A stretch of DNA of 64,000 nucleotides from an uncultured bacterium (GCA_963844965.1 CAWJQC010000008.1:64001-128000), one strand, 5' to 3'; counted from the first letter of the stretch, positions 4,170-59,328 are shown. A program made the numbers and translations. Notes: generated by a model from the sequence alone, not told the origin.

Positions 4170-6016
<1,847 letters not shown>

Positions 6017-6071
6017 TTTCACTGTTTTTAATAAAATAACATTGCCCCCGATTGCGGTCAACGAACCGATT

Positions 6072-6539
6072 TCAATCAAAGCCAGCCAAACCAAGCATTT
6101 CCTTAACGTACCGCGGCCAGCGCCTGTCAATCCGCGAAAACCAGCGAAGTTCGGAACTTTGACCATCGGGATGGGGTAACTTTCCGGCGCCCGCCTCCGC
6201 CAAAAACACGGAATTGACCGTGTGCACTGGCGGTCCGAACTCGCTATTATTGAAAATCGTTCCTCTCGCAGCTAGTAGTTTTTTGATCTTAATATCGCGC
6301 AAGCCGGTCTCTTCCCGTATTTTTCGTTTCACCGCGTCCTGAAGGATTTCGTTTTTCAAAATCCTGCCGCCGATGAGCCACCACTTGCCACGCATCGGCC
6401 TGTTCTTTCTTTTGCACAATAAAAATTTGCCGCGCGAGCGGACAACCGCATCCACACACGGAACCGGAACGACCTCCAAAATCTTCCTGTATAAACCGGC
6501 GGCGATCAGCCGCGGACCAAGCCTTATTTTTCTTCTCAT
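6072..6539 (-). CDS. NUDIX hydrolase, GDP-mannose mannosyl hydrolase-like
   Basis: Nudix box GGRILKNEILQDAVKRKIREETGL. It sits between fcl and gmd, as in gmd-fcl-gmm clusters. Confidence 0.55.
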   Translation of the reverse strand: MRRKIRLGPRLIAAGLYRKILEVVPVPCVDAVVRSRGKFLLCKRKNRPMRGKWWLIGGRILKNEILQDAVKRKIREETGLRDIKIKKLLAARGTIFNNSEFGPPVHTVNSVFLAEAGAGKLPHPDGQSSELRWFSRIDRRWPRYVKEMLGLAGFD

Positions 6540-16384: not shown

Positions 16385-16400
16385 CCTGCCGGCAGGCAGG
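16385..16400. repeat. Partial copy (16 of 20 bp) of the palindrome CCTGCCTGCCGGCAGGCAGG
   Basis: The sequence cctgccggcaggcagg has full 20-bp copies at 50201-50220 and 59284-59303. Confidence 0.6.
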
Positions 16401-17438: not shown

Positions 17439-19516
17439 ATGACACCAAAACCAGAAGAGCGGCCGCGGATAAAGCCGCCAGCGGTACCTGCCCGCCGTAG
17501 TCTTGATGAAGGAGGGAGACGTCCCGAACCGCCCGCAGTACCTGCCCGCCGGCCTGTCCGCCGAAATTTGAATGAAGGCGGAAGTTTTGACGGAGAAGGG
17601 AAACATTCCGAACCGCTTGCGGCCCGGCACCACAAATCGCCGGCAACCCACAAGAAACCCGCCGCAGGCCAGCTTCGCCCGCGAAGCGAGGCGAGCGAGG
17701 CTCGCCCGAACACAGGGGGGCGGCCCGCTGTAGGCACCGCCCGTTCATATCGCTCAAAATTCGGTGAAGCACATGGAAAAACTTCCGCTCCACACACAGA
17801 GGACACGGCCGGACTCGCGCGCCGCCGCCTCGGAGAAGAAACGGAAGAAAACGGCACGCCGCTCCGTTTTGTGCCGCTTGGGGGACTGGAAGAAATCGGC
17901 CGCAACTGCATGTTCTACGAGTACAAGAACGAAATCGTCATTCTTGACATGGGATTGCAATTTCCTGAAGAAGAAACTCCGGGCATGGATTATATCATTC
18001 CGAACATTTCCTATCTGGAAAAGAAGCGGGCGAATATCCAAGCTTTAATCCTCACGCACGCGCCACTACGACCACATCGGCGCCATTCCGCACGTGATAC
18101 AGAAACTCGGCAATCCGCCGATCTATGCAACGTCCATCACCAAGGCAATCGTGGAAAAGCGGCAGGAAGATTATCCCAATAGCCCGAAGATTCACATTGA
18201 AGTCGTGAAGAACGGCGACAAGGTAAAAATTTCCAATTATTTTGACGCCGAATTCTTCGGCGTGCCGCACACCGTTCCCGAAACGACCGGCGTGGTTTTG
18301 AAAACTCCCGTCGGCAACATGGTTCACTTCGCCGATTTCCGCGTTGAATACGACGAAAACGGCGTCGCGCACGGCTTGGATGAATTTGAACGCATCGGGA
18401 AGATCGGTATCCACACCTTCACCATAGACAGCACGAACGCCGAGGAAGACGGGCAGAACGCTTTCCGAAAAAACGGTAGAAAAAAATCTTGAAGAAATTT
18501 TCCGCAAAGCCGAGGGGCGGATCATCGTCGCCACTTTCGCCTCGCTCCTCACGCGCATCGGCGAAATCATAAAAATTGCCGAAAAACTCGGAAGAAAAAT
18601 CGCGGTCTCCGGCTACTCCATGAAAACGAACGTCCAAATCGCGCAGAATCTCGGGTTCATCAAGGCGAAACCGGGCACTATCGTATCGCTGGACGAAATC
18701 CACAAGTTCCGCGACGACAAGCTGATCATTCTTTCCACCGGCGCGCAAGGTGAAGAAAACGCGAGTTTAATGAGAATCATCAACGCCGAACACCGCCAGA
18801 TCAAGATCAAACCCGGTGATACAGTAGTCCTCTCGTCCTCGGTTATCCCCGGAAACGAGCGCAGCGTGCAGGTCGTGAAGGACGACCTCTCGCGGCAGGG
18901 CGCCATCGTCTACCACTCCGCGCTCGTTGACATTCACGCCTCCGGCCACGCGCCCAAAGACGACCTGAAACTGATTATGAAATTAATAAATCCGAAATTC
19001 CTCGTCCCCGTGCACGGCTATTACTTCATGCGCGCCGCGAACGCCCAATCCGCGCGCGAAATCGGCATTCCCAAAGAAAACGCGATACTGATGGACAACG
19101 GCCAGGTGGCGGAACTGACGCCGGACAGCTTTAAGATTGCACAGGAAGCGATTCCGGCGTTCTACGTCATGGTTGACGGCTTGGGCGTCGGCGACGTGGA
19201 AGAAGTCGTCCTACGCGACCGGCGCATGCTCGCCAAAGAAGGAATGATTGTAATTATCGTCACGATCGACCGCGACAAGGGAAAACTCCTGAAAAATCCC
19301 GACATCATCTCGCGCGGCTTCATCTATCTCAAAGAGAACCAGGAAATTCTTGAGGATACGCGCAAGCGCATCCGCGGACTCATTGAGCGCCTGCCAAGCT
19401 ACCAGCCGGTGGAAGCGGATTACCTGAAAACGCTGATTCGCGACCAAATCGGCCAGTTCCTGTATAGCAAAACGAGGAGACGTCCCATGATTATACCGGT
19501 CGTCATAGAAATATAA
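17439..19516 (+). CDS. rnj: Ribonuclease J (two apparent frameshifts) with Pro/Arg-rich N-terminal repeat extension
   Basis: ORFs 17439..18182, 18094..18492 and 18620..19516 together give MBL/beta-CASP RNase J (LILTHAHYDHIGAIP read through a CC run near 18050; VHGYYFMRAANAQ). The second shift is in an A6/A7 run near 18470. The first ~130 aa are low-complexity tandem repeats (PPAVPARR). Confidence 0.85.
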
Positions 19517-21292: not shown

Positions 21293-22183
21293 CTAATCAA
21301 TAGCTTCTAACCACTCGACGGGCGTTTTCATATCAAGTCCCATGTGCGGCCGTTCGGTATTGTAGTAGTGAAGAAAATCGGGAATCTCCTTGCGCCACGC
21401 GGCAAGAGTGTTAGGGATACGTCGTAAACAGTCCCGCTGAAGCGTTTGGATGAACCGTTCCACATGGCTGTTATCTGTTGGCGTCCGTACGCGCGAGTGG
21501 CGATGTGAAAATCCCTGATGCTCGATGACCTTGGTAAACCATTTTGAAAACTCCCCGCCACGGTCGGATTGGATTGTGACGAAAGGAAACGGAGCTGCCG
21601 CTTGCGCTTGCTGGACGAACCGTGCGCTTAAGCGGCTTGAGACCTGGGCGGCTGGCCATGCCCACGCCCAACGGGAACATACGTCGATCAAGGCGTACGC
21701 ATGGAGGTGGTCCATGGCAATACCTTCTTGCATTGAATCGATCTCAACCAATATGCCTGGCTTTGTGGGCATGGGACGCGGAAGATACTGGTGCCACTTC
21801 TTCCATTTTGAATATCGCGTGATACCGTGGCGTTTGAGTGTACGCTTCACGGACGAAAGGCTAACGGCAATCTTTTCCTCTTCTAGCCGGTGATGGACGA
21901 TCTCCGCGCATTGGTCCCGTTCGCTGCGAAGTGCAAGGATGCGGCCAATGACCGCTCGGTCGAGTTCGCGTGGATGATGGTGCGGCCGCGATGAAAGCGT
22001 CGGGATGACAAGATGACCGCCTTCGCCATATTCCGTGCCCCGCTTCACCCATAACCGGACCGTACAATGGCTGAACCCATACTTCCGAGCGGCCTTGCGG
22101 ATACTCCACCCGGACTGCGTGAGCGCGACTGCTTCCGCCCGTACCCGGGGCAGATGGGGATTCTTGGTGTATGCCATGTACAT
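21293..22183 (-). CDS. IS481-family DDE transposase (rve integrase core)
   Basis: MYMAYTKNPHLPRVRAEAVALTQSGWSIRKAARKYG (HTH) ... IQSDRGGEFS ... TPTDNSHVERF (DDE). The ORF track extends the N-terminus spuriously. Confidence 0.8.
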   Translation of the reverse strand: MYMAYTKNPHLPRVRAEAVALTQSGWSIRKAARKYGFSHCTVRLWVKRGTEYGEGGHLVIPTLSSRPHHHPRELDRAVIGRILALRSERDQCAEIVHHRLEEEKIAVSLSSVKRTLKRHGITRYSKWKKWHQYLPRPMPTKPGILVEIDSMQEGIAMDHLHAYALIDVCSRWAWAWPAAQVSSRLSARFVQQAQAAAPFPFVTIQSDRGGEFSKWFTKVIEHQGFSHRHSRVRTPTDNSHVERFIQTLQRDCLRRIPNTLAAWRKEIPDFLHYYNTERPHMGLDMKTPVEWLEAID

Positions 22184-22219
22184 AGCTTTGCAAATTCTTG
22201 GGTGGTTACAAGCTATTGA
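21293..22219. mobile_element. IS481-family insertion sequence, ~925 bp, 18-bp imperfect terminal inverted repeats
   Basis: Left TIR tcaatagcttctaaccac at 21297-21314. Right TIR gtggttacaagctattga at 22202-22219 (17/18 match). It encloses a DDE transposase gene. Confidence 0.7.
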
Positions 22220-22448
22220 ACCACGACACAGTCTTGACAATCCGGATGGGTTAGAAAGGAAATTCCAAGATTTAAATAGATTTGTTAAGGGCAAAGGGGA
22301 AAGAGATCTAGAATTAATTACGACATTCCATTTCTTATCAAAAACAGAGGGGAGCGCAAAAGCGAAAGAGAGACTCAAGGAGTTGAAGGGGGCGACACCT
22401 GAAGAAATAAAATACGCCACGGAAGCAATTAAGCAAATTCCATCATAA
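22176..22448 (+). CDS. Hypothetical small protein, start uncertain (would begin inside the IS right end)
   Basis: The only in-frame ATG is at 22176, inside the IS terminal repeat. The product ends ...KELKGATPEEIKYATEAIKQIPS. It is AT-rich, and its stop overlaps the next start (ATGA). Confidence 0.2.
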   Translation: MYIALQILGWLQAIEPRHSLDNPDGLERKFQDLNRFVKGKGERDLELITTFHFLSKTEGSAKAKERLKELKGATPEEIKYATEAIKQIPS

Positions 22449-22713: not shown

Positions 22714-25700
22714 TTAAACCTTCCTCACCGCCAGCCAGATTTCTTTGTCTTCAAATTTCGTTGTTTCTTCCGCGTCAAATTTTTCGGATTTTTTATATTC
22801 TATTTCGCGCGCGCCGGTTTCTTTTTTCAGCAACTCCTCCTTCTTGCCCAAGACAAGACGGATTTCCGCAGGGAATACGGCCGACAAAATCATTTCGTCT
22901 TTGGGCTTCAGGCCCGCTCTCTGCCGCAGTTCCTGGACCATGCGCACCACCTCGCGCAAAATCCCCTCTTCGCGCAATTCCGGCGTGATCGCTGCGTCCA
23001 ACTCAATCTCGCCCTTCATCTTTGAGTCCACAACAACTTCCTTGACATTCACCTCTTCCGCCAAAACCGCAAGTAAATCTTTGTTTGTTTTTAATTTTTG
23101 ATTCTTAATTTTTAATTTTTGCAATGGCTGGCGGACCTTGATTCCCGCCTCCGCCCGCTTTGCAAGTCCCAAGCTCGCGAGCCGCCGCACCTCGGCCATA
23201 GCCTTCAACAATTTTGAATTTTCAATTTTCAATTTTGCACTGGCAGGCCAATCGTGCAGGTGCACGGAATTTTTATAACCGAAGCTTTCGTGTAAATATT
23301 CCGCAAAGAACGGCATGAACGGTGCGGTCAACTTGGTTGTTTCACGCAAAACAAATCCCAATGTCGCCGAAGCCACCTTGAAATCCGCCTGACTTTGGGG
23401 CTTTTGCAGTCGCCTCCGCGAACGTCTTATATACCAGCGCGACAGGTCATCAACGAATTTTTCTATCGAAAGCGCCGCCTCGCGAATTTCATATCTGTCA
23501 AGATTTTTCGTTACACTAGCGACGGTTTGGTTGAGGCGCACAAGGATCCAATTATCCAAAACGTTTTTACTCGCCGTCGGCAGCTTTCCAACTTTAGCCG
23601 CTGACTCCGCATACGTCCGATAGAATACGAATGAATTCCAAAGAAGGAGGTGGAAGCGGCGATATGCCTTAAGAATTTCTGCCTCGTCAAAACTTTTCGG
23701 CTCGCCCAGGGGGGTTACGGTATAAAAATACCAACGCACCGCATCGATTCCGTATTTCCGTATTACTTCCCAAGGATCAACCACATTACCCCTGGATTTA
23801 GCCATTTTCTGCCCGTTCTTGTCGTTTATAAGCCCGAGCGATACAACATTCTTATATGGCGATTCGTGCCCCAAGGCGGTCGCGATGGCAAGCAACGTGT
23901 AAAACCAGCCGCGCGTCTGGTCCATCCCTTCGGCGATGTAATCGGCTGGATAATCCAAACCACGAGGCACGTATCCCACAACACGACCAACTTTTGTGTT
24001 GCGTGTCACGTGCTTTGTGCTTTGTGCGAACGGATAGTGAGCCTGAGCGAACGGCATCGCCCCCGAGTCGTACCACACGTCGGCAACTTCCTTCACCCGT
24101 GAAATTCTCTTGCCGCATCTGGGGCATTTTATGGAAATCATGTCGGCGTAGGGGCGGTGCAGGTCAACCTCGCCGGTGTCGTTCCTCGGAATTATCTTCA
24201 GTTCCAATTTGTGGCACTCCGCAGGCGCGACGAAATCGCTTCCACGGCTCACTTTTTCCACGACCGCTTTCTTTTCGCTCCAGCCAAGCGCTACCTGGTT
24301 CAGCATCCAAACCGGATATTCGTGCGTTACTAAAAGTATGTTCCTGCCCTTGTACTTTTTTTCCAGGTCCCGCAGCAGATCCCAGAGGCGCACGCGGAGA
24401 TCACGCAACGATTCGCCCCCTTCCGGCCCTTTTTCAAATCTTTCCGCATGCGTAGGGAAAAGTTCCCTGTACCTACCTTCGGGCTGCCCCTCCAGTACAC
24501 CCATATTTATCTCATGGAGCCGCCTGTCAAAAATAATCTTCTCCACACCAAGCGTCCGCGCGACAATCCTTGCGGTTTCTTGCGTTCTCAGAATATCGGA
24601 GGCGATAACCAAATTCATTTTATTTCCGGTCTCCTCAAGCGCATCCTTAAGTTTTTTGGCCGATTCTTCAGCCTCACTCTTGCCTTGCGGCGTAAGGTGA
24701 TACTCGCCCCGACCGCTGTCTATCACGTGAGCAAGAAGCGTCTCGGAAAATCCGTGGCGCATCACCCAATAATTATTTTTCGGGCCGCCGGCCAACCGAT
24801 CCAGTTCATCCAAACCGCCCACGACTTCCACATTCCCGCAACTTTTGCATTCCCAGATCGGCAACGGCGTTCCCCAATAACGCTCGCGGGAAAGATTCCA
24901 GTCCTTAACTTCTCTCAGCCACTCGCCGAAGCGACCGTCTTTTAGATGCTCCGGAACCCAGTTGATTTTTTTATTGTTTGCGAGGAGTTTATCGCGCAAC
25001 TTGCCCATGGCGATGAACCAAGAACTGCGCGCGTAATAAAGCACCGGCGTTTCGCAGCGCCAGCAATAAGGATATTCGTGCGTGTAATTTTCTATTTTGA
25101 AAAGATTGCCGTTCTTGCGGAGATGTTCAAAAATTTTCTCGTCTGTTTCTTCGGTTTTGACTGGCAAGCCACCAAGTTCCGGCACGTCGCGCGTGAATTT
25201 TCCTTCCTCATCAACAGTGTGCTTCTGCGGCAAGCCCACCTTAACGCCCAACCGGTAATCGTCTTCGCCGTACATAACGGCGGTATGCACAACGCCAGTT
25301 CCCTCGTCGGTCGCCACGAAATCCGCGGCGTAAACTTTATACGCGGCGGGGGTGCGGAGCGGCTTTATTTCAAACAGCGGCTTATAGTTCAGGCCAACCA
25401 GATCTTTGCCGCTCAGAACCTCACGCACGTCGGACTCCGTCCCGAACGGATTACCCTCTTTTTTGATTATCTCCTCGGCGACAATCCAGCGCTCAATTTT
25501 GCCGCCAACCATTTTCTTCACCAAGGCGTAATTTATTTTCTCCCCGACCGCCAGTGCAACGTTTCCCGGCAACGTCCATGGCGTCGTCGTCCATGACAAA
25601 ATATAGGTATCTTCGTCCGTGTGAATATCCTCGCCGATTCTCTGTCCGCGCTTTAATCTGAATTTAAGATAAACCGACTGCTCCGTTGTTTCTTTGTAGC

Positions 25701-26277
25701 CCATGGCAAGTTCGTGCGAAGAAAGTGCCGTGCCACATCTCGAGCACCAAGGAACAACTTTGTGGCCCTTGTACAAAAGCCGGCGCTTCGCGATCTGCGC
25801 AATCGTCCACCACAACGTTTCAATATATTCCGGATCGTAGGTAACGTAAGCGTCTCTAAGGTCAAGCCAGTAACCGATGCGGCGCGTCATTTCTTCCCAC
25901 TCATCCTTATGAAGCCAAACCTGCTCCTTCGCTTTTTTATTGAAAGCCGCGATGCCGAATTTTTCTATGTCTTTTTTGGATTTCAAGCCGAGCGCTTTTT
26001 CGGTGGCCATCTCCACCGGCAAGCCGTGTGTGTCCCAGCCGGCGCGGCGCGGCACAAAATAGCCGCGCATGGATTTGTAGCGCAAAATGATGTCCTTAAC
26101 TATCCGCGCGAGAATATGATGAATTCCCGGCTTGCCGTTCGCATAAGGAGGGCCTTCGTAAAACACGAATTTCCGCTTGCCACGCCGCTCGGCAAGCGTC
26201 TTTTCAAAAACATGATTTTCTTCCCAAAATTTCAGGACTTTCTCTTCTATTTTCGGGAGGTTGAATTCTTCGGGCAT
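22714..26277 (-). CDS. ileS: Isoleucine--tRNA ligase (type 2) carrying a ~200-aa histidine-phosphatase-like insertion
   Basis: PYANGKPGIHHILARIVKDI (HIGH region), the CP1 editing domain and KMAKSRGN are present. The true start is MPEEFNLPK at 26277. An extra segment NNYWVMRHGFSE...ILLVTHEYPVWM is inserted between WGTPLPIW and DLHRPYADM. Confidence 0.9.
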   Translation of the reverse strand: MPEEFNLPKIEEKVLKFWEENHVFEKTLAERRGKRKFVFYEGPPYANGKPGIHHILARIVKDIILRYKSMRGYFVPRRAGWDTHGLPVEMATEKALGLKSKKDIEKFGIAAFNKKAKEQVWLHKDEWEEMTRRIGYWLDLRDAYVTYDPEYIETLWWTIAQIAKRRLLYKGHKVVPWCSRCGTALSSHELAMGYKETTEQSVYLKFRLKRGQRIGEDIHTDEDTYILSWTTTPWTLPGNVALAVGEKINYALVKKMVGGKIERWIVAEEIIKKEGNPFGTESDVREVLSGKDLVGLNYKPLFEIKPLRTPAAYKVYAADFVATDEGTGVVHTAVMYGEDDYRLGVKVGLPQKHTVDEEGKFTRDVPELGGLPVKTEETDEKIFEHLRKNGNLFKIENYTHEYPYCWRCETPVLYYARSSWFIAMGKLRDKLLANNKKINWVPEHLKDGRFGEWLREVKDWNLSRERYWGTPLPIWECKSCGNVEVVGGLDELDRLAGGPKNNYWVMRHGFSETLLAHVIDSGRGEYHLTPQGKSEAEESAKKLKDALEETGNKMNLVIASDILRTQETARIVARTLGVEKIIFDRRLHEINMGVLEGQPEGRYRELFPTHAERFEKGPEGGESLRDLRVRLWDLLRDLEKKYKGRNILLVTHEYPVWMLNQVALGWSEKKAVVEKVSRGSDFVAPAECHKLELKIIPRNDTGEVDLHRPYADMISIKCPRCGKRISRVKEVADVWYDSGAMPFAQAHYPFAQSTKHVTRNTKVGRVVGYVPRGLDYPADYIAEGMDQTRGWFYTLLAIATALGHESPYKNVVSLGLINDKNGQKMAKSRGNVVDPWEVIRKYGIDAVRWYFYTVTPLGEPKSFDEAEILKAYRRFHLLLWNSFVFYRTYAESAAKVGKLPTASKNVLDNWILVRLNQTVASVTKNLDRYEIREAALSIEKFVDDLSRWYIRRSRRRLQKPQSQADFKVASATLGFVLRETTKLTAPFMPFFAEYLHESFGYKNSVHLHDWPASAKLKIENSKLLKAMAEVRRLASLGLAKRAEAGIKVRQPLQKLKIKNQKLKTNKDLLAVLAEEVNVKEVVVDSKMKGEIELDAAITPELREEGILREVVRMVQELRQRAGLKPKDEMILSAVFPAEIRLVLGKKEELLKKETGAREIEYKKSEKFDAEETTKFEDKEIWLAVRKV
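24166..24777 (-). other. Histidine phosphatase (PGAM-like, RHG motif) domain inserted within ileS
   Basis: The RHG catalytic motif (VMRHGFSE) and the distal His (LLVTHEYP) are spaced as in histidine phosphatase superfamily branch 1. The segment is in frame inside the IleS catalytic core. Confidence 0.55.
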
Positions 26278-26452
26278 TAGATTAAAAATATCAAATTTTT
26301 GACACATTTCCAAGCGAAAAATCCGCCAAGCATTTCCACGTACCGGACGGGACGGTCGCAGAGACGACAACACACGATTGACGTCTTTGTGCATATTTGA
26401 TAGTCTGAACCACAGAAACGTTGACAAAAATCTACCGAGATGGAGGTGTTAT

Positions 26453-27220
26453 GTGCCGAAAAACAACGTTATAAATCTAGAAAGCGGGGTGGAAAGCATT
26501 ACCCTCGTCGGTCTAATCAAAAAAGCTGCCCGCCTTAAAGGACTGGTTTATTGGGACGGCTGCGAACGCGCTTGTTCGAAACCGATTGCGACTTATGCCC
26601 TGGACAACGAAACGCTTGCTTTCCTTGCGAAGCACGGGGTTAAACAAAATCCCCGACCGGACGGAATTTTTACCTTATCCGACACGACAGAGCGGCCTGA
26701 ACCTCGTGGCGACACGGTAGAAACGGCATTTTGGAATTTCCGGCGCCGCAAAGATCGCAAAGATGAAAAAATAGACGAGCTCGAAATCGCTCTCTCCGTC
26801 GGATTTGGTATCACGATGGAAAAGAGGGGGATTATTCTACTTCCGCAGGCATATGGGACATTTCTCTCGCCCGGCTATAATGGCGCGCATCGCCACATGT
26901 TCAAGTTGCTTGTGGAATACCACCAAGACGCTCCAGCGGTAGCTCAGGAAATTGCCGCGAGCGACGACACCTTCGTTGTCGGATTCACCGAATTGGGGCT
27001 CGGCGGCATTCGCAGGCTCTCCGATCTTTTCGAAGAATTCGCGAGGGGGAACCATACGATCAAACAACTCGCCAACCATCAGGAGGTTTTTAATCCGATG
27101 CCGTATCCTTATTACCAGAATCCAGGCGATGAACTTTTTATTATTGAGCCGGCGCAGCCGAAGGTAATCGGAGTGTGGCGGGCGCAATTAACAGAGTATC
27201 GCTCAAATCTCGTCGCCTAA
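26453..27220 (+). CDS. Hypothetical protein (GTG start 6 nt after GGAGGTG)
   Basis: The 255-aa ORF has no recognisable motif. It is followed by a strong terminator. It lies between the real ileS start and a duplicated argS-end fragment. Confidence 0.4.
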   Translation: MPKNNVINLESGVESITLVGLIKKAARLKGLVYWDGCERACSKPIATYALDNETLAFLAKHGVKQNPRPDGIFTLSDTTERPEPRGDTVETAFWNFRRRKDRKDEKIDELEIALSVGFGITMEKRGIILLPQAYGTFLSPGYNGAHRHMFKLLVEYHQDAPAVAQEIAASDDTFVVGFTELGLGGIRRLSDLFEEFARGNHTIKQLANHQEVFNPMPYPYYQNPGDELFIIEPAQPKVIGVWRAQLTEYRSNLVA

Positions 27221-27242
27221 CAAGCAAAAATGTTCAGCCCAA

Positions 27243-27280
27243 ACCGCGGGGTCTGCCTAAACCTCGCGGCTTTTTATTGA
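27243..27280 (+). terminator. Rho-independent terminator
   Basis: ccgcggggtctgcctaaacctcgcgg followed by ctttttatt. Confidence 0.6.
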
Positions 27281-27304
27281 TTCGGTGCCGAGTATTTCAA
27301 TTTC

Positions 27305-27399
27305 TCAAATCTCCTCCAGCACCTTGATTCCCAAAAGGCCGAGCTCTTTTCAAAACCATTCTCGTCCCAAAATTTCGGCAGATTGAATTCCTCAGGCAT
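27305..27399 (-). repeat. Duplicated aaRS junction: copy of the argS 3' end (27305-27343) fused to a copy of the ileS 5' end (27351-27399)
   Basis: On the minus strand it reads ATG-PEEFNLPKFWDENGFEKS-SALLGIKVLEEI*. The first half matches the ileS start (MPEEFNLPKIEEKVLKFWEEN) with a small deletion. The last 13 codons match the argS C-terminus (GLGLLGIKVLEEI) with one synonymous change. Confidence 0.7.
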
Positions 27400-27479
27400 T
27401 ATGAAAATTTTACTATTTTTTCTTTCTACTTACAAAACCCGGAATAAAAAAGGGCCGCACTTGGCGGCCGAGAAACGAT

Positions 27480-27890
27480 TCACTCCTTTTCTTTCTTCCC
27501 CTTCGGATGCGTGGATAAATAAGATCTCTTTTCAATGGTCCCTACATACTTAAGAGGAATGAGGTTGTTTTTACCTCCGTTTCTGTTCTTTCCATTCCCG
27601 TTTCCATTCTCATCTTCCAAAGAAAGACGCACATACTCCTCACCCGCTTCGTCCACGAATATGTCAACAAGGCAATTCCCCTCCAAGAGCAGGGTGAAAA
27701 AAGATCTTTTGGATATTCCTTGCGGCGTTTCAAGGGTCAACCCGCTACAAAATTTCCCATCCACCACTCGCTCGCCAACCCTGCAAGACCCGTTTGGCAT
27801 CATCTCAATCTTGCAATCCAAATTTACGCGAAAATAGATTAGCCATCTGTAGGTTCTCTCTACAAGAACCTTCTTTTCTTTAGCGTCCAT
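27480..27890 (-). CDS. Hypothetical protein with Asn/Gly-rich segment
   Basis: The 136-aa ORF contains ENGNGNGKNRNGGKNN. It lies between the duplicated ileS start and the real argS end. Confidence 0.3.
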   Translation of the reverse strand: MDAKEKKVLVERTYRWLIYFRVNLDCKIEMMPNGSCRVGERVVDGKFCSGLTLETPQGISKRSFFTLLLEGNCLVDIFVDEAGEEYVRLSLEDENGNGNGKNRNGGKNNLIPLKYVGTIEKRSYLSTHPKGKKEKE

Positions 27891-27947
27891 GAACCCCCCC
27901 TCTAAGGCAATAGCTTAGAAGAGTTTATCAAGCAATAATTTGCCCTG

Positions 27948-29672
27948 TCAAATCTCCTCCAGCACTTTGATTCCCAAAAGGCCGAGGCCTTTTTTTAGCA
28001 CGAGCGCCGCTGTTACAACAAGAATCAGAAGCGCATCGCGGCGGTATGCGTTCTCTTCCTTTATGACCGGCGTTGTTTCGTAAAGCCGGTTCGCGAGGAC
28101 GGCGAGCTTGTAGAGATAGGCGGCAAGATTTGACGTCCCTAAGTCCTTCGCGCTCCGCAAAACCTCGTCGGGAAATTCCGTTATTTTCCTTATGAGCCGC
28201 AGTTCCGTTTCGCCGCGGAGCTCGCGCAGGTCAACTTCGCCAATCTCTCCGGCTTTCTTTTTAATGCTCATAAGGCGCGCGTAAGTATATTGGAGATATG
28301 GCGCGCTGTCGCCCGTCAAGTCCAGCATTTTTTTCCAGTCAAAAACGATATCCGTCATGCGGTTTTCTTTGAGGTCGTTGTACTTCAGGGCGCCAACGCC
28401 GACCACTTCCGCGATCTTCCGTTTTTCCTCATCGGACGGGCCCTCGGCGGCTTTTTCATAACGCTTGAGGGATTTCTCGTCCACAACGTCGCGCGCAAGC
28501 GTAATCGCTTTCTCCAAGACGTCCGCAAGTAAAATCGTTTTGCCCTCGCGCGTCGCCAATTTTTTGCCAGCTTCGCCGAGAACCAAGCCGTATTTAACGT
28601 GCATTAACTCGGCCCCGTCCAACCCCACGATCTTCGCTATCGCGAAAAGCTGTTCAAAGTGCAGCGACTGTTCGTTTCCTACGACATACAAAATCTTGGC
28701 CGGCTTGTATTTCGTCAGGCGGTAATTAAGGTTAGCGATGTCGCGCGTGAGATATAGGCTTGCCCCGTCCGACTTCCGCACCAGCGCCGTCGGCAGGTGA
28801 AAACTTTCCAGATTGACGATTAAGGCGCCCGCACTTTCCTGCGCGATGCCCCGCTCCTCCAGATTCTCAAGGAGCGGCTTCAAATCCTTCTCAAAAAAGC
28901 TCTCGCCGATCCACTCGTCAAATTCAATTCCAAGGACTTTATACGTCTTCTTGAGCTCCTTTATGGATTCTTCCCGGAACAGTTCCCACAATTTCCTGTT
29001 TTCATTGTCGCCCTCCTCAAGTTTCTTGAATTCTTCCTGCCCGCGTTTTTCCAGATCCAAATTATTTCCCAGTTCTTCGTGAAAACGGACATAAAGTTTT
29101 TGCAATTCCTCAATCGGCCTTGTTCCCATCGCTCTCGCATCGCCCCACAATTTATAGGCGGCGATGATCTTGCCGAACTGCGTGCCCCAATCGCCCAGGT
29201 AGTTCCAGCGGACAACTTTGTAGCCCAAAAATTCAAAAATATTAGCGAGAGCGTCGCCGATGATCGTCGTCCTCAAATGCCCCACGTGCATTAGCTTCGC
29301 GATATTCGGCTGCGAATATTCCGCGATAACCGTTTTCCATCCACCAATGGAACTTCTGCCGAACCTCTCAGCGTTCTCGTGGATGCTTCCGAGCTCGTCC
29401 TGAAGCGCCTCGTTGCTTATCCAAAAATTCACGAACCCCGGCGGTGCCGTATCTGTTCTCTCAAAAAATCCCCGCGGTGCGCCGTTCCAAACGTTAATGG
29501 CGATTTCCCTAGCCAAATCAATTGCATTCCTGCCGTTTTTTTTCGCGAGCCGCAGAGCCAAATTAGTGGAATAGTGGCCAAATTCTTCCCTCTCCGGGAC
29601 AAAAACGTCAATAACCTCGGCGTCGGTGCCGGCAACCGCTCCTTTTATAATTTCCACGATTTTTTCCTTCAT
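27948..29672 (-). CDS. argS: Arginine--tRNA ligase
   Basis: The class I signature is PNIAKLMHVGHLRTTIIGDALANI. The anticodon-binding C-terminal domain is present. Confidence 0.9.
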   Translation of the reverse strand: MKEKIVEIIKGAVAGTDAEVIDVFVPEREEFGHYSTNLALRLAKKNGRNAIDLAREIAINVWNGAPRGFFERTDTAPPGFVNFWISNEALQDELGSIHENAERFGRSSIGGWKTVIAEYSQPNIAKLMHVGHLRTTIIGDALANIFEFLGYKVVRWNYLGDWGTQFGKIIAAYKLWGDARAMGTRPIEELQKLYVRFHEELGNNLDLEKRGQEEFKKLEEGDNENRKLWELFREESIKELKKTYKVLGIEFDEWIGESFFEKDLKPLLENLEERGIAQESAGALIVNLESFHLPTALVRKSDGASLYLTRDIANLNYRLTKYKPAKILYVVGNEQSLHFEQLFAIAKIVGLDGAELMHVKYGLVLGEAGKKLATREGKTILLADVLEKAITLARDVVDEKSLKRYEKAAEGPSDEEKRKIAEVVGVGALKYNDLKENRMTDIVFDWKKMLDLTGDSAPYLQYTYARLMSIKKKAGEIGEVDLRELRGETELRLIRKITEFPDEVLRSAKDLGTSNLAAYLYKLAVLANRLYETTPVIKEENAYRRDALLILVVTAALVLKKGLGLLGIKVLEEI

Positions 29673-31216: not shown

Positions 31217-32110
31217 TCAGTCATGAGAAATCTTATCGGGATTTTGTTGGCCACCGTTGTTTAACTTATAGAAATTTTCAAATACTTTGGCGACCAGAAT
31301 CGGGCCGGTGCCGCCCGGAGTGGGAGTGTAAAACGACAATGACGATAATAATGACGAAGACACATCCAGATCGCCGACCAATTTGCCTTTTTCCGCGTCG
31401 GTCTGCGTCAAGTCCGCGTTTGTCTGCGACGGCGCGGGCGCCGTATCATAGCCGAAATCAATCACGCCCGCGCCGGATTTGAGCATTTCCGGTTTTATAA
31501 GGCCGGCTTTTCCGACCCCCGTTATTACAAGGTCCGCGTTTTTGAGCAAAGAAAAATCGCTGCCACGATGCAAAAGATGAAGTCCCTTAACTTTTCTCAT
31601 TAGCCATGTTGAGATCGGTTTCCCCACAAGCGGGCCGAGGCCGACAATGGCAACGGTGGCAGTTGAAAGTTGAAGGTTGAAAGTTGAAAGGATTTTTTCA
31701 ACGACGCCGACAGCCGGCGGCACGACAGGATTCCGGTCAGCGTAGAAGGCACCTAGGGCACGCTCGCCCAAAATGTCAACGTCCTTCTCGCGCGGAATGA
31801 CATTCAAGATGTACTGGGCATTCACGTGTTCCGGCAAAGGCAGCTGCACGATCACTCCGCCGCAGGTTTTGTGTTCGGAAATTTTCTGGACCTCATCGCG
31901 CAATTCGTCGTTTTTGATATCGGGCGGAAATTTATACAAACGGAAATCAACGCCGAGCTCTTTAGCCGCTTTTTCCTTTTGTTTTATGAAACTTGCGGAG
32001 CTCAGATCGTCGCCGACCAAAAATACTGCCAAGAATTTTTTTGGCGCTGTCTGGGACTTCAATTTTGTCAAAATCTCCGAAGCGATTTTTTTACCATCAA
32101 TCACAATCAT
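31217..32110 (-). CDS. folD: Bifunctional methylenetetrahydrofolate dehydrogenase/cyclohydrolase
   Basis: MIVIDGKKIASEILTKLK...GVIVQLPLPEHV...GKAGLIKPEMLKSGAGVIDFG ... TPTPGGTGP. The true start is at 32110. A ~30-aa insertion precedes the C-terminal motif. Confidence 0.85.
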   Translation of the reverse strand: MIVIDGKKIASEILTKLKSQTAPKKFLAVFLVGDDLSSASFIKQKEKAAKELGVDFRLYKFPPDIKNDELRDEVQKISEHKTCGGVIVQLPLPEHVNAQYILNVIPREKDVDILGERALGAFYADRNPVVPPAVGVVEKILSTFNLQLSTATVAIVGLGPLVGKPISTWLMRKVKGLHLLHRGSDFSLLKNADLVITGVGKAGLIKPEMLKSGAGVIDFGYDTAPAPSQTNADLTQTDAEKGKLVGDLDVSSSLLSSLSFYTPTPGGTGPILVAKVFENFYKLNNGGQQNPDKISHD

Positions 32111-32299
32111 CAATTTATTATAACAATAAATAATAGAGGCCGGATCAAGAATCCGGCCCTGGCACCGTGTGGGCTTGTTTGGCCAGACACAACACAACTC
32201 TATCCAAAAGCATCTTAGCTTTCGGTTCTTTCCCCTTCTTTGACTGGAAATCCGTTGAGTAAAGATTGAGAAAATTGCCAGGCCAGCCGTCAATGCAAA

Positions 32300-32663
32300 G
32301 TCGCGCTACTATCCATTTTCCCGGAAGATCTTTCGTCCATAACAACGGCCTGCTCGCGTTCTTCGCCGAATTCCTCTTCCACCTCAACATCTCCCTCCTC
32401 TGTTTCCTCGGGCCCCGCAAAAAATAAATCTGTTTCGTAGTTAGTGAACTTGTGCAAAATACCGTTGAGGGACCATTACGAATATAGGCGCTGAAAAGCT
32501 CCCGGCCGTCGGCGCGCCTGAACTTATTTGAAAGAGAAAGGCACAGATCTTTGAACCCGGAAATGAAACGCTGCAGTTCCGGCGATGGATTCGTAAAATC
32601 GGCCGGAATAATGTCTGGGACCTCTATTATTACTTTCAAAACGACCTCCGCTTGATGGAACAA
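32300..32663 (-). CDS. Hypothetical protein with acidic C-terminal tail (apparent frameshift at a C3/C4 run near 32470)
   Basis: Reading through the shift gives ...IRNGPLNGILHKFTNYETDLFFAGPEETEEGDVEVEEEFGEEREQAVVMDERSSGKMDSSATLH*. The 172-aa ORF in the track runs into antisense folD sequence. Confidence 0.35.
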
Positions 32664-32720: not shown

Positions 32721-33960
32721 TCAATGTTTTAATGGGAATTTCCTGCAGAGTTTTTTCACCGCGCCGTTCACATTCCTGTTTTGCGCCAAAACTTCGTCTA
32801 TCAGCCGCGCGACCTCCTTCATCTCTTTTTCTTTCATGCCGCGTGTCGTGAGAGACGGCGTGCCGATTCTTATTCCCGACGGGTCAAAGGGCGGCCTGGT
32901 GTCGTAAGGCACCGTATTTCTGTTCACAATAATGCTATTCCGCTCCAGACGATCCTGCGCTTCGCGGCCGGAAATTCCGAAATTCGTGAGGTCAATAAGC
33001 ATCAGGTGATTTTCCGTACCGCCAGAGACAAGATTGAAACCACGATGGACGAGTTCACGGGCAAGAGTGCCGGCGTTTTTAACTATCTGCCTACCGTACT
33101 TTTTGAAGGACGGCTGCATAGCTTCGTAGAGGCACGCAGCGATGGCGGCGGTTTGGTTGTCGTGCGGTCCGCCCTGAAGCGCCGGGAACACCGCCCTGTC
33201 AATTTCCTTGCCGATGTCAATTTTCTTCTTAAGGGCAAGCGGCGATACTCTGATTGGCGAAAATCAGCGCGCCGCGCGGTCCGCGCAGGGTCTTGTGCGT
33301 AGTCGTGGTCACGACATCGGCGTAAGGAAACGGCGAGGGATGCGCACCAGCGGCGACGAGACCGGCAATGTGAGCCACGTCCACGAGAAGATAAGCGCCA
33401 ACCTCGCGGGCTATCTTCCCGAATTTTTTGAAATCAAACTTTCTTGTATAAGCGGTCGCGCCGGCAACGATAATCTGCGGACGCTCTTTGCGCGCCATTT
33501 TTCTCACTACTTCGTAATCAATGAAGCCGTTGCGGTCAACGGAATACTGCGCGGACTTGTAAAATCGCGCGGAAAAATTCACCTTCCAGCCGTGCGTCAA
33601 GTGACCGCCGAAGGGAAGCGACATTCCCATGATTTTTTCTCCCGGCCGGAGCAGGGCGTAATAGACAGCCATATTCGCCGGCGAACCGGAATACGGCTGA
33701 ACGTTCACATGCCAATTTTTACCAAGATGGAAAACTTTCCTTGCCCTCTCCTGCGCCAATAACTCAATCTCATCAATCACCGAATTGCCCGCGTAGTATC
33801 TCTTACCCGGGTAACCCTCGGAATATTTGTTGGTTAGCGCGGACCCCAGTGCCCCGAGCACTCCGGCCGAAACGATATTCTCCGAGGGAATCAAGTCCAG
33901 AGTGTCGTTCTGACGCCGCGTTTCTTTTTTGATTAAATTTTCCACAATCTTGTCGCGCAT
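32721..33960 (-). CDS. glyA: Serine hydroxymethyltransferase (apparent frameshift around 33200-33240)
   Basis: ORF 33229..33960 has LIPSENIVS...[13 protein letters not shown] 32721..33191 has [11 protein letters not shown] ... The halves are joined through a different frame ([16 protein letters not shown]). Confidence 0.9.
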
Positions 33961-39948: not shown

Positions 39949-40365
39949 TTAATAAACCCAGATTCCAATAGCAAGCAGGATAATCCGCACGAGCATAAAG
40001 GCAATTAAGTGGAGCATATAAAATATACCCTTTTCGAACATATCAATGCCCCAAATTTTGAAACAGATAAGAATGACGGCGGAGTGGACGATAAGGTAAG
40101 AGAAACTGCCAATTATCCGGTTGACAGATGGAGGAAGGCCGTTGGATTGGCGCATCCTTCCGAAAGTCATTGCGGTAAAAACGACAGAAACCAACACGAG
40201 GAAGATACCGATTACGATCGTTGGGATGAGGGGTGAAATAAACGATTGCCACAATTGCACGAAAGGCGCATCAAGGGCGTTAAATATCGGCTGGAGCATT
40301 TGGGTCGCCGAGGCGACAGCGCTGGAGGAATACACTGGGAAGATAACCGGCGGTGTAGATGTCAT
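39949..40365 (-). CDS. Hypothetical membrane protein
   Basis: The 138-aa ORF has 3 predicted TM helices. Confidence 0.4.
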   Translation of the reverse strand: MTSTPPVIFPVYSSSAVASATQMLQPIFNALDAPFVQLWQSFISPLIPTIVIGIFLVLVSVVFTAMTFGRMRQSNGLPPSVNRIIGSFSYLIVHSAVILICFKIWGIDMFEKGIFYMLHLIAFMLVRIILLAIGIWVY

Positions 40366-40431
40366 CCCAGCAACATACAGCAGTTATGGCGGGCTGGTCA
40401 ATTGGTGGCCGCGGGTTATATAATATCTTTA

Positions 40432-41667
40432 ATGAAAATCGAGAGCCAAAAACTCAACGTAACCGAGGCGTTTAAAAACTTCTATTACATCGTCCCGCCG
40501 TATCAGCGGGAGTATGTTTGGAAGGAGAGAAACGTTGCCCAGTTATTTAACGATATTTACGACGAATATACCAACGATAAAAACTCCGAATACTTTATCG
40601 GCAGTATCGTCGTAAATAAGCGTGAGGATGGCACATACGAAGTGATCGACGGCCAACAGCGATTAACCACTTTATTTATTAGTCTTTGTGCGCTTAAACG
40701 TGTGTTCAAAAATTCCCAAGATCATTTAAGCGTTATAGAAAATCTGCTCACTTCCCCGACGACGAACGATAAAGGCGAAATCATCCGCAGCTCCCATCTT
40801 GAACTGCAATATGAAGGCACAGCAGACATTTTACGCGATATTTTGAATGACAAGGAATTAAGCAAAAAAACGTCTGGTTCGGCAGAACACATCAAAGAAG
40901 CCCTCGAAACCATCCTCGAATACCTGAACGCAAACTTCAAAACAGAAAATGACCGAACGCGGTTTTATGGATATTTTATGCACAAGGTAAATTTTGTGCA
41001 GATTGAAACGCCGAGCGTGAGCGACGCTTTGAAAATTTTTGAAACGATCAATGAGCGCGGCGTTGGCCTGAATCCGATGGATTTGCTCAAAAATTTGATA
41101 TTTCAGCAATTGCCACGCGACGAGTTTCAAAAGGTTAATGTCGAATGGAAGAAAATAACGAGGACGTTGGAAAAGAATGGGCAGAAGCCACTCCGCTTTT
41201 TACGCTACTTCATAATGGCCAACTATCAGGTCAAGGATACTAAAGACGTCGAGGTTGTGCGTGAGGACGAGATTTACGACTGGGTGGTAAGACACGCCGA
41301 GGTTTGCGGCTATAGGAAAGATCCATTCGGGTTTGTGGGAAAAATCGCCACAGATGCCGAAGCCTACGTTTCATTTTTCAACGGTATGACGCTGGAGGGC
41401 AAGAATAGCGTCGAATTGGAAAACATCAGGAGCTTGGGCGGCGGTGCATTCAGCCAACATTTAGTTATGCTGCTTGCGGCCAAAGAGTTGCCCGAAGACC
41501 TTTTTCTTCATCTCGTTCGACAGGTGGAAAGCTTATCTTTTACTACTTCATTACGAAAACTCCCGCGAAAGCACTGGAAGCCCGTTTTTCCCGATGGGCG
41601 GATGATTTGCGTGATGTAGCGGGCGATGCAGATCAAAAAGCCGCCCTCAATAAATTCATAATGTAAA
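40432..41667 (+). CDS. DUF262 (ParB/Srx-fold, GmrSD N-terminal type) domain protein; apparent frameshift near 41550
   Basis: VPPYQREYVWKERNVAQLFNDIYDEY ... IDGQQRLTTLFISL are DUF262 hallmarks. The C-terminus continues in another frame (...KTPAKALEARFSRWADDLRDVAGDADQKAALNKFIM*). No DUF1524/HNH partner domain is present. Confidence 0.6.
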
Positions 41668-41718
41668 GGATAGGTTTCTTTAGACAGTGATTCGACGGCT
41701 TTTTGCCGTTTTTTTTCG

Positions 41719-42501
41719 TTAAGCCGCAATCTTCTCGGCAAACACGGACGGCGGCATCTTGAGGGCGGAGTGGATCCGCGTGTGGTTGTACTGCCACAAG
41801 GTGCTGTAGATCTCCGCCACGAGCTCGCCGAAGGTCCCGAACCGGTTGGGATCACCGAGGTCAATCTTGAACTTGTCATAGAACGATTCCTGGTAGCCGT
41901 TTTCCCATGGGGCACCGGGCCGCGACCGCGAGATCGTGATGCCACAGTCCCCCAGTGTATCGGTGAACGCTCGTGCCTTGTACTCGCTGCCGTTGTCCGA
42001 ATGGAAGATGACCGGATGCGGATGGTGGAAAAGCGCGTTGGCCAGGGTCTGTATCGTGAGGGGCGATCCTTTCCGCAACGCCACATGGACGCCCATCAAT
42101 CGTCTCGTGAAAAGATCGAGTATCGTGGACACGTACACTTTCTTGCCGCGATACAGGAACTCCGTGAAATCGGTTGCCCAGACGTGGTTCGCGTACGAGG
42201 GCATGATGGCAAGTAAGAGGTTCGGAAAGGCCCGCGATGCCTTTGATTTCCGGTATTTCCTGCCTCGCCTCCGGTACGGCCTTATGCCGAAGATTCGCAT
42301 GACGCGCTGCGCTCGCGGACGGCTCACGCCCAGAGCTTGTCCCAAGCGCCGGGAACCGTATGCCGGATGGCGCTGCAATTCTTCTTCCATGCGGATCTTG
42401 AGCGCCCAATCTTTCTTGTCCTGCCGTGATACGTAGTAGAGCGATGCCCGCGAGACGCCCATGGCCCGCGCCATGGCGGACTTGTTCCGCTTTTCCGTCA
42501 A
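41719..42501 (-). CDS. IS3-family transposase OrfB (DDE integrase core)
   Basis: HSDNGSEYKARAFTDTL ... PGAPWENGYQESFYDKFK. Confidence 0.85.
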   Translation of the reverse strand: MTEKRNKSAMARAMGVSRASLYYVSRQDKKDWALKIRMEEELQRHPAYGSRRLGQALGVSRPRAQRVMRIFGIRPYRRRGRKYRKSKASRAFPNLLLAIMPSYANHVWATDFTEFLYRGKKVYVSTILDLFTRRLMGVHVALRKGSPLTIQTLANALFHHPHPVIFHSDNGSEYKARAFTDTLGDCGITISRSRPGAPWENGYQESFYDKFKIDLGDPNRFGTFGELVAEIYSTLWQYNHTRIHSALKMPPSVFAEKIAA

Positions 42502-47714: not shown

Positions 47715-49448
47715 TTATTTAAGAAACTTTAACATCTTTTCAATTGGCCAGGAATTAATTATATCTTTTTTCCCAGCCCAGCCGCGGCGTGCCTGCGCGA
47801 TGCCGTACTCCAAACATCCACAATGCGCCGGCGAATGGGCGTCGGAGTCAATCGCCAATTTAACACCAGCATCCACGCATTTTTTTATGTATTCGTCTTT
47901 GAGGTCAAGCCGGTCGGGAAAGGCGTCTATTTCCATTATCGTCCCGGTCTGCTTTGCGGTTTTTATAAGTTCATCCACGTCAACTTCGTAAGGAGGGCGG
48001 CGGTTGATGATACGCCCCGTCGGATGGAAAATTATGTCCACATTCGGATTCCGCATCGCTTTCCTAATCCGCTCTGTCTGCTCCTCGCGCGGCAGATTGA
48101 AATATGAATGGACTGACGCGCCGACAACATCAAGCTTGGCCAAAATATCGTCAGGCAAGTCAAGCGAACCATCTTTCAAAATATCGCATTCGCTGCCCTT
48201 TAAAATTTTAATTTTACCGCCGAACTTTTTATTGAGCCGGTCAATTTCGGTCATTTGTTTCAAAATTCCCTTTTCATCCAAACCATGGGTCATCGCCAGA
48301 CGTTTTGTGTGATCCGTGATAGCGATATATTCCAATCCGGCCTCGCTCGCGATCTTGGCCATTGTTTCTATGGAATCCGAGCCGTCTGTCCAGTCCGTCT
48401 GCACCTGTAAGTCGCCAAGCAAATCGTCATAGCCGATTAATTTCGGGAGTGTGTGGTTCTGCGCCAATTCTATCTCGCCCGTATTTTCTCTCATCTCCGG
48501 CTCTATATAATCCATTCCCAGTGCTTTATATAATTCTTCCTCTGTTTTCCCAGCGATTTGCACTTCGCGCTTCGCGCCCTGCTTAAACAACCCATACTCG
48601 TTGAGTTTATATCCTTTTTTAATGGCAATCTGCCGCAGGGCAACATTATGGTCTTTGGAACCCGTAAAGTAGTTAAGGGCCGCGCCGTAGGAATCGCTCT
48701 CAACGACGCGCAGATCAACATTAATGCCGGATTTGAGTTTAATTGCCGATCTCGTTTCGCCGTGCGCATTAACTAGGGCAACTTCCGGCATTTTCACGAA
48801 GTAATTCATGACCGGTCCTGGGTTTTTGGAAATCGCTAGGATATCTGCATCGCCAATCGTCTCTTTCATCCGCCTTACCGAGCCGGCGACAACGACGCGC
48901 TCAATACCACCAAACTCCCGCAGGCGTTTTTCTATCATCCGTATCTCCGGCATGACAAAGCCTAAAACGAAACGCCCGCCGGATTTTTTGGTGAACTCTA
49001 TGCCTTGCAGAATTTTCTCCTCGCTTTTTTTGCCGAAGCCCTCAAGCTTGGCAATCTTTCCGGCCTTGGCCGCCTTTTCCAAATCGGCGATATTCCTGAT
49101 TCCCAATTTTTGATAAAGTTTTCTGACGGATTTCGGTCCCAGCCCTTCAATCGCCCCGAGCGAAGCAAGGTCAACTGGCGTTTTCTTTTTCAAATTTTCG
49201 TAGTCCTTTATCCGTCCGGTTGTGAGCAATTCTTCTATCCGTTCAGCTATTCCCCTGCCGACCCCGGGAATTCCTTCAAGCGCCTTCACGCCGCCCTTCC
49301 TGTATATTTCTTCCACTTCTTCTTCCAGACCAGCGATCACGCCCGCGACTTTCTCGTAAGCGCGTGGCTTGAACGGCACATCATACATCTCCAGATATTC
49401 GGCGATCTCCTTCAAAATTTCCGCGATTGATTGGTTAGAAATATTCAT
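47715..49448 (-). CDS. polX: DNA polymerase X family protein with C-terminal PHP domain
   Basis: HhH motifs (GIPGVGRGIAERI) and the Pol beta palm (VVAGSVRRMKETIGDADILAI) are present. The PHP domain has ITDHTKRL ... IDSDAHS. Confidence 0.85.
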   Translation of the reverse strand: MNISNQSIAEILKEIAEYLEMYDVPFKPRAYEKVAGVIAGLEEEVEEIYRKGGVKALEGIPGVGRGIAERIEELLTTGRIKDYENLKKKTPVDLASLGAIEGLGPKSVRKLYQKLGIRNIADLEKAAKAGKIAKLEGFGKKSEEKILQGIEFTKKSGGRFVLGFVMPEIRMIEKRLREFGGIERVVVAGSVRRMKETIGDADILAISKNPGPVMNYFVKMPEVALVNAHGETRSAIKLKSGINVDLRVVESDSYGAALNYFTGSKDHNVALRQIAIKKGYKLNEYGLFKQGAKREVQIAGKTEEELYKALGMDYIEPEMRENTGEIELAQNHTLPKLIGYDDLLGDLQVQTDWTDGSDSIETMAKIASEAGLEYIAITDHTKRLAMTHGLDEKGILKQMTEIDRLNKKFGGKIKILKGSECDILKDGSLDLPDDILAKLDVVGASVHSYFNLPREEQTERIRKAMRNPNVDIIFHPTGRIINRRPPYEVDVDELIKTAKQTGTIMEIDAFPDRLDLKDEYIKKCVDAGVKLAIDSDAHSPAHCGCLEYGIAQARRGWAGKKDIINSWPIEKMLKFLK

Positions 49449-50128: not shown

Positions 50129-50233
50129 CGCCGCCGCTCGTCCTCTTTATTATTTAATATTCGGCCATTTTGTTGATGTAATATCCGCAAAGCGTCCGCG
50201 CCTGCCTGCCGGCAGGCAGGATTTCTAACGGGA
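50107..50233. repeat. Inverted-repeat mini-element: 13-bp TIRs TCCCGTTAGAAAT/ATTTCTAACGGGA enclosing the 20-bp palindrome CCTGCCTGCCGGCAGGCAGG
   Basis: The arms are at 50107-50119 and 50221-50233. The palindrome is at 50201-50220. The element lies between the half-MFS and the clp-like gene. Confidence 0.6.
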
Positions 50234-59230: not shown

Positions 59231-59328
59231 GTTTATGTTTTCCATTCCGCAATCCTGCCCCGCTCTACTGGCGGGGGGGTATTCCTGCCTGCCGGCAGGC
59301 AGGCTTGCGGGGAAAACATAAAACAAAT
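59231..59328. repeat. Inverted-repeat mini-element enclosing the 20-bp palindrome CCTGCCTGCCGGCAGGCAGG (59284-59303)
   Basis: The arms are gtttatgttttcc (59231-59243) and ggaaaacataaaac (59311-59324), with an inner CCCCGC/GCGGGGG stem. It sits in the 300-bp spacer between the MBL RNase and the LOG-like gene. Confidence 0.5.

Follow-up and report, generated by a model that had tools for sequence, protein, structure and literature searches.

The interval between the synthetase genes argS and ileS of an uncultured bacterium carries two unrelated cargo genes, here called X and Y, and between them a 95-nt block (27399–27305, minus strand) in which a second copy of the argS 3′ end is fused to a degraded second copy of the ileS 5′ end. 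We analysed this locus within a 64,000-nt stretch of one contig (GCA_963844965.1 CAWJQC010000008.1:64001-128000; hereafter the window, with positions counted from its first nucleotide), whose host genome is an uncultured member of the Patescibacteria. With moderate confidence, we read the 95-nt block as the scar of a recombination between two argS–ileS spacer haplotypes from related lineages, joined in the manner of homology-facilitated illegitimate recombination (HFIR). The scar is real and cleanly readable, and adds another example of an already known type of event; it has no evident function and reveals no new mechanism or functional system. What it provides is a dated, base-resolution footprint of the addition of an accessory gene between essential genes in a mobile-element-poor, uncultured member of the Patescibacteria.

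Both synthetase genes are intact and lie on the minus strand, argS at 27948–29672 (574 aa; Pfam domains tRNA-synt_1d, DALR_1 and Arg_tRNA_synt_N) and ileS at 22714–26277 (1187 aa; tRNA-synt_1, Anticodon_1 and His_Phos_1). The gap between the argS end (27948) and the ileS start (26277) measures 1671 nt. Along the minus strand the order is argS, Y, the 95-nt block and ileS, with X on the plus strand between the block and ileS. Denoting the ileS start as A and the argS end as B, the interval reads A1-X-B1|A2-Y-B2, that is, ileS-start / X / argS-end | ileS-start′ / Y / argS-end, and in its middle the argS-end copy directly abuts the degraded ileS-start copy. An earlier note on this DNA had proposed these gene boundaries and this layout, together with X as a 255-aa gene with Shine–Dalgarno sequence (SD), GTG start and terminator and Y as a 136-aa Asn/Gly-rich open reading frame (ORF), and all of this was borne out. 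By contrast, the 31-codon chimeric ORF that it read across the block does not hold: 27305–27399 comprises 95 nt, and the frames of the relic ileS and argS ends differ by one base. Read from the relic ATG at 27399, the sequence crosses B1 in a frame other than that of argS and reaches a stop at 27274, which gives a 41-codon ORF (27274–27399, minus strand; 41 aa) that is probably meaningless, although single-base statements about frame on the relic are soft because the contig carries frameshifts elsewhere.

The argS relic B1 (27305–27343, minus strand, with a weak extension to 27350) contains the last 12 codons and the stop codon of the gene and matches the true argS end B2 (27948–27986, minus strand) at 38 of 39 positions; with the extension (27305–27350 versus 27948–27993) the identity is 43 of 46. 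The window contains two matches to the argS-end 39-mer when up to three mismatches are allowed, whereas 0 are expected (100 shuffles). B1/B2 is the sole direct repeat of such size in the 64 kb, except for one family of three imperfect copies (65–76%) of a 37-nt sequence organised around a short palindromic motif.

The second half of the block, A2 (27346–27401, minus strand), copies the ileS start in two sections, in which 25 of 29 and 17 of 19 positions are identical. Its parent-type sequence is A1, the true ileS 5′ end (26200–26279, minus strand; first 26 codons). The relic retains 18 codons, over which A1 and A2 agree at 41 of 48 aligned positions, and has lost 7+1 codons through deletions of 21 nt and 3 nt. 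The true N-terminal peptide is MPEEFNLPK[IEEKVLK]FWEEN[H]VFEK (brackets, residues missing from the relic), and the relic copy reads MPEEFNLPKFWDENGFEK. The missing residues include the EEKxL helix, which is kept in the ileS of essentially all relatives. Slippage is the likely cause of the 21-nt deletion, as it sits between two GAAA repeats. Upstream of A2 are the intrinsic terminator of Y (27443–27469, minus strand) and a relic ileS-type promoter (27407–27435, minus strand; TTGTAA, 17 nt, TAAAAT), which ends 7 nt before the relic ATG. The same geometry precedes the live ileS, with a promoter-like site at 26285–26313 (minus strand; TTGGAA, 17 nt, TGaTATTTT, 7 nt to ATG) whose function is putative, and it recurs in many relatives. 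This arrangement of terminator and promoter indicates that A2 was once the 5′ end of a functional ileS.

For comparison, we fetched 160 loci around argS homologues from 80 GTDB species genomes and 80 metagenomes. These relatives are Paceibacteria/Parcubacteria-type genomes with an argS identity of at most 67%, except for locus L092, a 1.6-kb contig with 86% amino acid identity. Between the two units of the window, similarity does not reach past the argS stop codon at one end, and at the other it stops 2 nt beyond the ileS ATG: only the 46-nt and ~56/81-nt coding ends match, and neither the non-coding DNA beside them nor the cargo is related. Similarity between L092 and the window is likewise lost exactly at the argS stop codon. 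Such coding-only similarity resembles a comparison of two lineages rather than of the halves of a fresh duplication. The substitutions comprise five synonymous and two non-synonymous changes in A1/A2 and one synonymous change in B1/B2. Seven of these eight fall at third codon positions (binomial P ~0.003 against a neutral expectation of 1/3; our own estimate), which points to copies that diverged as parts of working genes under purifying selection. In the PEEFNLPK block, A2 agrees with the relatives L016 and L095 at 22 of 24 positions and with A1 at 20 of 24.

This pattern bears on the simplest alternative, an in-place tandem duplication of the ileS-start/spacer/argS-end segment at a microhomology, after which one copy would have lost its spacer content or had it replaced. 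Head-to-tail order with the microhomology CTTTT at the joint is the classic signature of such a duplication, and the 38 of 39 identities between B1 and B2 would be compatible with a recent event. We nevertheless consider it rather improbable. The spacers share nothing outside the coding ends, so the units are not homologous throughout, and a third-position excess would not be expected from the decay of a dead copy. In addition, exchanging the cargo with its limits exactly at the stop and start codons would take at least two more precise events.

At the fusion point of B1 and A2 (27344–27350), comparison of the joint (27338–27352) with its two parents (27981–27995 and 26195–26210) showed that the parent sequences have only CTTTT in common, a 5-nt microhomology. 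The illegitimate joints of HFIR form at microhomologies of ~3–10 nt. An HFIR origin would start from two lineages, one with argS-Y-ileS and the other with argS-X-ileS; the ileS start of the argS-Y-ileS parent would read ATGCCTGAGGAATTCAATCTGCCGAAA.... Linear DNA of one lineage would have entered the other, where one end would have been anchored by homologous recombination inside one synthetase gene and the other joined illegitimately at CTTTT in the terminus of the other gene. Once donor DNA had taken the place of the recipient DNA between the two joints, the product would be A1-X-B1|A2-Y-B2, with both synthetases intact, both cargo genes stacked and one fused relic, composed of the displaced 13 codons of the argS end and the displaced first ~18–26 codons of the ileS start. 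The relic ileS start would have lost its 21 and 3 nt later. Which way the DNA moved, how it entered the cell and that one step sufficed are inferences, whereas the anatomy, the conserved synteny around a variable spacer, the codon-position pattern, the microhomology and the lack of recombinases are observed. Import of X together with the present ileS 5′ end is mildly favoured, since a Y-type layout is common in relatives and X-family genes move between contexts.

HFIR has been reported in natural transformation of Acinetobacter, Streptococcus pneumoniae and Pseudomonas stutzeri (cited in PMC5361080 and PMC3240628). The present locus resembles these cases in that one end would be homology-anchored and the other illegitimate, in that foreign DNA is added beside a conserved gene, and in that no mobile-element functions are required. 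However, HFIR is known from laboratory selections, mostly with recipient DNA deleted, whereas here it is inferred from a natural scar that leaves both neighbouring genes whole and two copies of each gene end. HFIR is also the putative mechanism behind orphan immunity-gene arrays of the Vibrio cholerae type VI secretion system (T6SS), one of which keeps the displaced effector 3′ end, and has been hypothesised for the 3′ regions left orphaned at Rhs loci (Kirchberger et al. 2017, PMC5361080). In these Rhs/T6SS effector–immunity loci, a new module displaces the 3′ end of the old gene and its partner downstream, and truncated gene-end relics stand in tandem, much as at argS–ileS. The modules there are polymorphic toxins, and the arrays have a selective basis in the immunity genes that they retain. 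By contrast, the flanks here are housekeeping synthetases, the cargo is of unknown function, and a single step is seen that is absent from relatives.

Several observations weigh against an HFIR origin. B1 and B2 (38 of 39) are much closer to each other than A1 and A2 (41 of 48; Fisher P ~0.07, a rough estimate of our own from small counts), and in the PEEFNLPK block A2 is as near to the distant relatives L016 and L095 as to A1; a single donor should give similar divergence in both repeat pairs. Uneven divergence between donor and recipient, conversion (homogenisation) of the B copies, or two separate events are possible explanations for this gap. Homologues of X occupy five different neighbourhoods, none of which adjoins argS or ileS, and none of the 160 loci carries X or Y in its spacer, either as argS-X-ileS or as argS-Y-ileS. 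Sliding identity revealed no detectable mosaic breakpoint in argS against L092 or in ileS against seven relatives, although all of these are too distant for the purpose (~80% nucleotide identity). Finally, the arrangement is represented by a single assembly only.

The same end product could also arise by a Campbell-type single crossover, in which a small circle carrying one spacer haplotype, already closed at ileS′|argS′, would integrate through short end homology and thereby duplicate both ends. The resulting topology matches the observed arrangement exactly, and the codon-position pattern and the coding-only similarity fit as well as they do under HFIR. Precedent comes from a screen for HFIR in E. 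coli, in which duplications by circular molecules were the majority outcome (56 of 60 Lac− recombinants analysed), with 109–950 bp duplicated in the 14 recombinants whose sequences were determined (Amarir-Bouhram et al. 2011, PMC3240628). Those products share with our locus a homologous segment that is directly duplicated around the insert. However, this route needs a circular donor and usable homology, and the homology available here is short (46–80 nt) and imperfect. In the B segment, a mere 46 nt long, uninterrupted identity extends over 18 and 20 nt; the A segment, ~80 nt at ~87% identity, has exact runs of at most 12 nt. The circle would itself require an earlier illegitimate circularisation of a 0.65–1.1-kb fragment, and no replication or mobility function is present. 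A single crossover therefore seems unlikely to us.

Another explanation, which the earlier note had also raised in the form of an assembly chimera, is an artefact: a chimeric read, or an assembler that fused the haplotypes of two strains present together in the metagenome, would have produced the tandem arrangement. X and Y are each found on a single 156-kb contig of one assembly, and the lineage-variable spacer makes mixed haplotypes plausible. Moreover, the contig appears error-prone, with 1-nt frameshifts at short homopolymers in the genes for RNase J (18042–18064 and 18430–18461) and SHMT (~33190–33230); examples are GCGCCAC where GCGCAC is expected, and an A-run. These frameshifts point either to gene decay or to frequent assembly errors, possibly from long reads. 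An assembly chimera is nonetheless unlikely. Exact matches between the two units do not exceed 20 nt, the longest being 20 nt, and the joint shares 5 nt, so k-mer or overlap graphs would not link them. The helix-removing deletions in A2 mark it as a remnant in decay, whereas a second strain would have contributed a gene start that is still complete. The homopolymer-type errors hint at long reads, which, if used, would span 1.7 kb. Overlapping ORF chains that are likewise broken by frameshifts occur at 4170–6539, 31217–32663 and 41508–42501.

The two gene ends could be located in 120 loci of the comparison set. All of these keep argS upstream of ileS in the same orientation, and the spacer between the genes ranges from 1 to 5032 nt (median 395; <100 nt in 43 loci, 300–999 nt in 61 and ≥1 kb in 8). 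Its cargo is unrelated from lineage to lineage and includes two families of 96–127-aa ORFs, a reverse transcriptase (RVT_1) in L012, an N6/N4 DNA methylase with a partner ORF in L045, a GFO_IDH_MocA oxidoreductase in L092 and, in some spacers, DUF2238-like membrane proteins on the opposite strand. The commonest spacer type consists of a small same-strand ORF, a terminator and the ileS promoter, as is the case with Y. Because synteny is conserved while spacer size varies and the cargo is unrelated, the argS–ileS interval is a gene-turnover hotspot between conserved core genes, in agreement with the earlier note, which had suspected a hotspot between the two synthetase genes. Two of the spacers hold defence-type cargo: L012 (8701–11400) encodes the RVT_1 protein (E 2e-23) and two unknown ORFs, and L045 (3448–5331) encodes the methylase (E 6e-36) beside a 251-aa ORF with Cys-rich HNH-like motifs.

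The earlier note had linked this hotspot to site-specific insertion of incoming elements that bring gene-end copies. Such an integrative element would target the argS 3′ or ileS 5′ end and supply a replacement gene end in attL/attR style. Gene-end direct repeats do flank cargo here (B1/B2 around Y plus A2, and A1/A2 around X plus B1), and the locus is a hotspot. Yet no integrase, recombinase or excisionase is encoded in the units or within ~10 kb of them, apart from an rve-type transposase 4 kb away beyond ileS, and the neighbours of the interval are otherwise housekeeping genes. No hairpin or attC-like fold was found at the junction, where folding is no better than that of shuffled sequences (z +1.5 and +0.6). 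Searches with X and Y, including the phage and plasmid comparison that the earlier note had called for, gave no similarity to phage, plasmid or IMG/VR sequences and no match in Pfam, PHROG, PADLOC or NCBIfam. Relic argS-end or ileS-start copies above shuffle level were found in 0 of 41 relatives' spacers (≥120 nt, genome-contig set), and the scar is unique to the present genome among the loci compared. X homologues reside in unrelated contexts away from argS and ileS, and an 'element' aimed at one of the two genes would need to bring along part of the other. We therefore regard the site-specific element as highly improbable and close to refuted. An integron cassette array was also considered and rejected, given the lack of an attC-type hairpin at the junction and of an integrase nearby. 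Integrative elements that restore the 3′ end of the gene they enter, and integron cassettes, resemble the locus in that gene-end direct repeats bracket the cargo and cargo units stand in tandem; they differ in that the locus has no integrase, attC-like structure or recurrence, and in that its repeat ends coincide with codon boundaries only.

At hotspots free of mobile genetic elements, gene turnover has been attributed to recombination within the core genes on either side (Oliveira et al. 2017, PMC5635113). Like these, argS and ileS form a conserved core-gene pair around a highly variable interval without integrases, and the defining combination of conserved flanks, variable content and no mobility genes is found at argS–ileS. 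Whereas double homologous recombination at those hotspots leaves no scar, one side here was non-homologous under our HFIR model, and a scar would have survived for this reason. Paceibacteria were not included in the published survey (PMC5635113). The locus supports the idea that hotspots flanked by core genes turn over via recombination and not integrases, and the argS–ileS interval is a place to seek lineage-specific genes in Paceibacteria.

A broader extension of the HFIR model is tentative, and we hold it to be possible but doubtful: the argS–ileS interval of Paceibacteria might serve as a regular landing pad, where cassettes would be swapped between lineages by transformation with the synthetase termini as homology arms, and where one-ended events would stack genes. 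The cassettes would include small ORFs, the reverse transcriptase, the methylase and X-like genes. If so, one-ended events would be how tiny genomes without classical mobile elements stack genes, and the scar would be the first direct footprint of such a route in the Candidate Phyla Radiation.

As to the cargo, X (26453–27220, plus strand; 255 aa) starts with GTG behind an SD (GGAGG at 26442–26446) and is followed by an intrinsic terminator (27244–27279, plus strand). We found 46 homologues of ~250 aa with 40–53% identity, which align from the same start; those with a source name all come from metagenome-assembled genomes of the Patescibacteria group or of unclassified bacteria. X is thus a real gene of a conserved, Patescibacteria-only family. 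Invariant motifs of the family include LGLGGIR and EPAQP, and a confident structure model showed no known fold.

Y (27480–27890, minus strand; 136 aa) shares its strand with argS and ileS, has its own G-rich SD and contains an N/G-rich stretch. A promoter-like site for Y lies at 27922–27951 (minus strand; TTGACA, 18 nt, TG-TAAACT), and its −35 element overlaps the argS stop codon. Y occupies the slot in which many relatives have a small same-strand ORF. Among 5.8 billion proteins it matches only itself and is an orphan. An exhaustive phmmer search of 1.84 billion representatives returned only one S8 peptidase, through a hit summed over seven 46-aa repeats. This peptidase (P0048; 1074 aa) has a C-terminal region of ~46-aa repeats with the pattern DWSSGW...YLFLLK.GNG.VHIH, and residues 22–78 of Y resemble one repeat unit (FFTLLLEGNCLVDIF); the E value of 1.9e-8 is the sum over 7 repeats. 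Comparison of Y with one family of small spacer ORFs from relatives gave a non-significant hmmsearch E value of 0.18, at the top of 467 background ORFs, and an hhalign local P of 0.0076 with a probability of 5%, which is suggestive at most and for which we claim no relationship. Single-sequence structure prediction of Y gave an unusable model (predicted local distance difference test score of 40).

The promoter of ileS itself appears to be a clade-wide feature. In many relatives, TTGAAA-N17-TGnTATTTT ends 6–9 nt before the ileS ATG and no SD is present. This architecture was seen in the 55 nt upstream of ileS in L010, L012–L014, L020, L029, L031, L045, L051, L052, L055, L096, L114, L143, L144 and others. 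A promoter so close to the ATG, combined with the lack of an SD, implies a leaderless or near-leaderless ileS mRNA across the clade, and the promoter-like site in the window would, from its position, likewise give a leaderless transcript or one with a very short leader. The relic ileS-type promoter upstream of A2 may still initiate transcription that enters the 41-codon ORF and runs antisense to X. That it would drive an antisense transcript controlling X is speculation; the scar itself probably has no function. Rfam and tRNA scans of the region returned nothing.

Two by-products of the analysis may outweigh the scar in interest, namely the Patescibacteria-only X family and a histidine-phosphatase insertion in IleS. 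Residues 504–669 of IleS form a complete His_Phos_1 domain (PF00300, E 6e-28) that interrupts the class I synthetase core midway. By tblastn, this segment was found inside ileS in 78 of 78 relatives with room for the full-length gene, which indicates that the insertion is clade-wide.

Elsewhere in the window, the rve-type transposase (helix-turn-helix plus integrase core; 21293–22420, minus strand) lies directly downstream of ileS and outside the repeats, in a patch with a GC content of 0.55–0.57 compared with ~0.45–0.50 around it. A protein with a GmrSD-type restriction endonuclease N-domain is encoded at 40246–41619 (plus strand) and PolX (pol beta thumb plus PHP) at 47715–49448 (minus strand). 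The palindromic motif CCTGCCGGCAGGCAGG occurs at 16385–16400, 50201–50220 and 59284–59303, with 0 occurrences expected by chance, and a near-copy lies just upstream of ileS in the argS–ileS spacer of L009; it may be a repeated intergenic element or a terminator motif.

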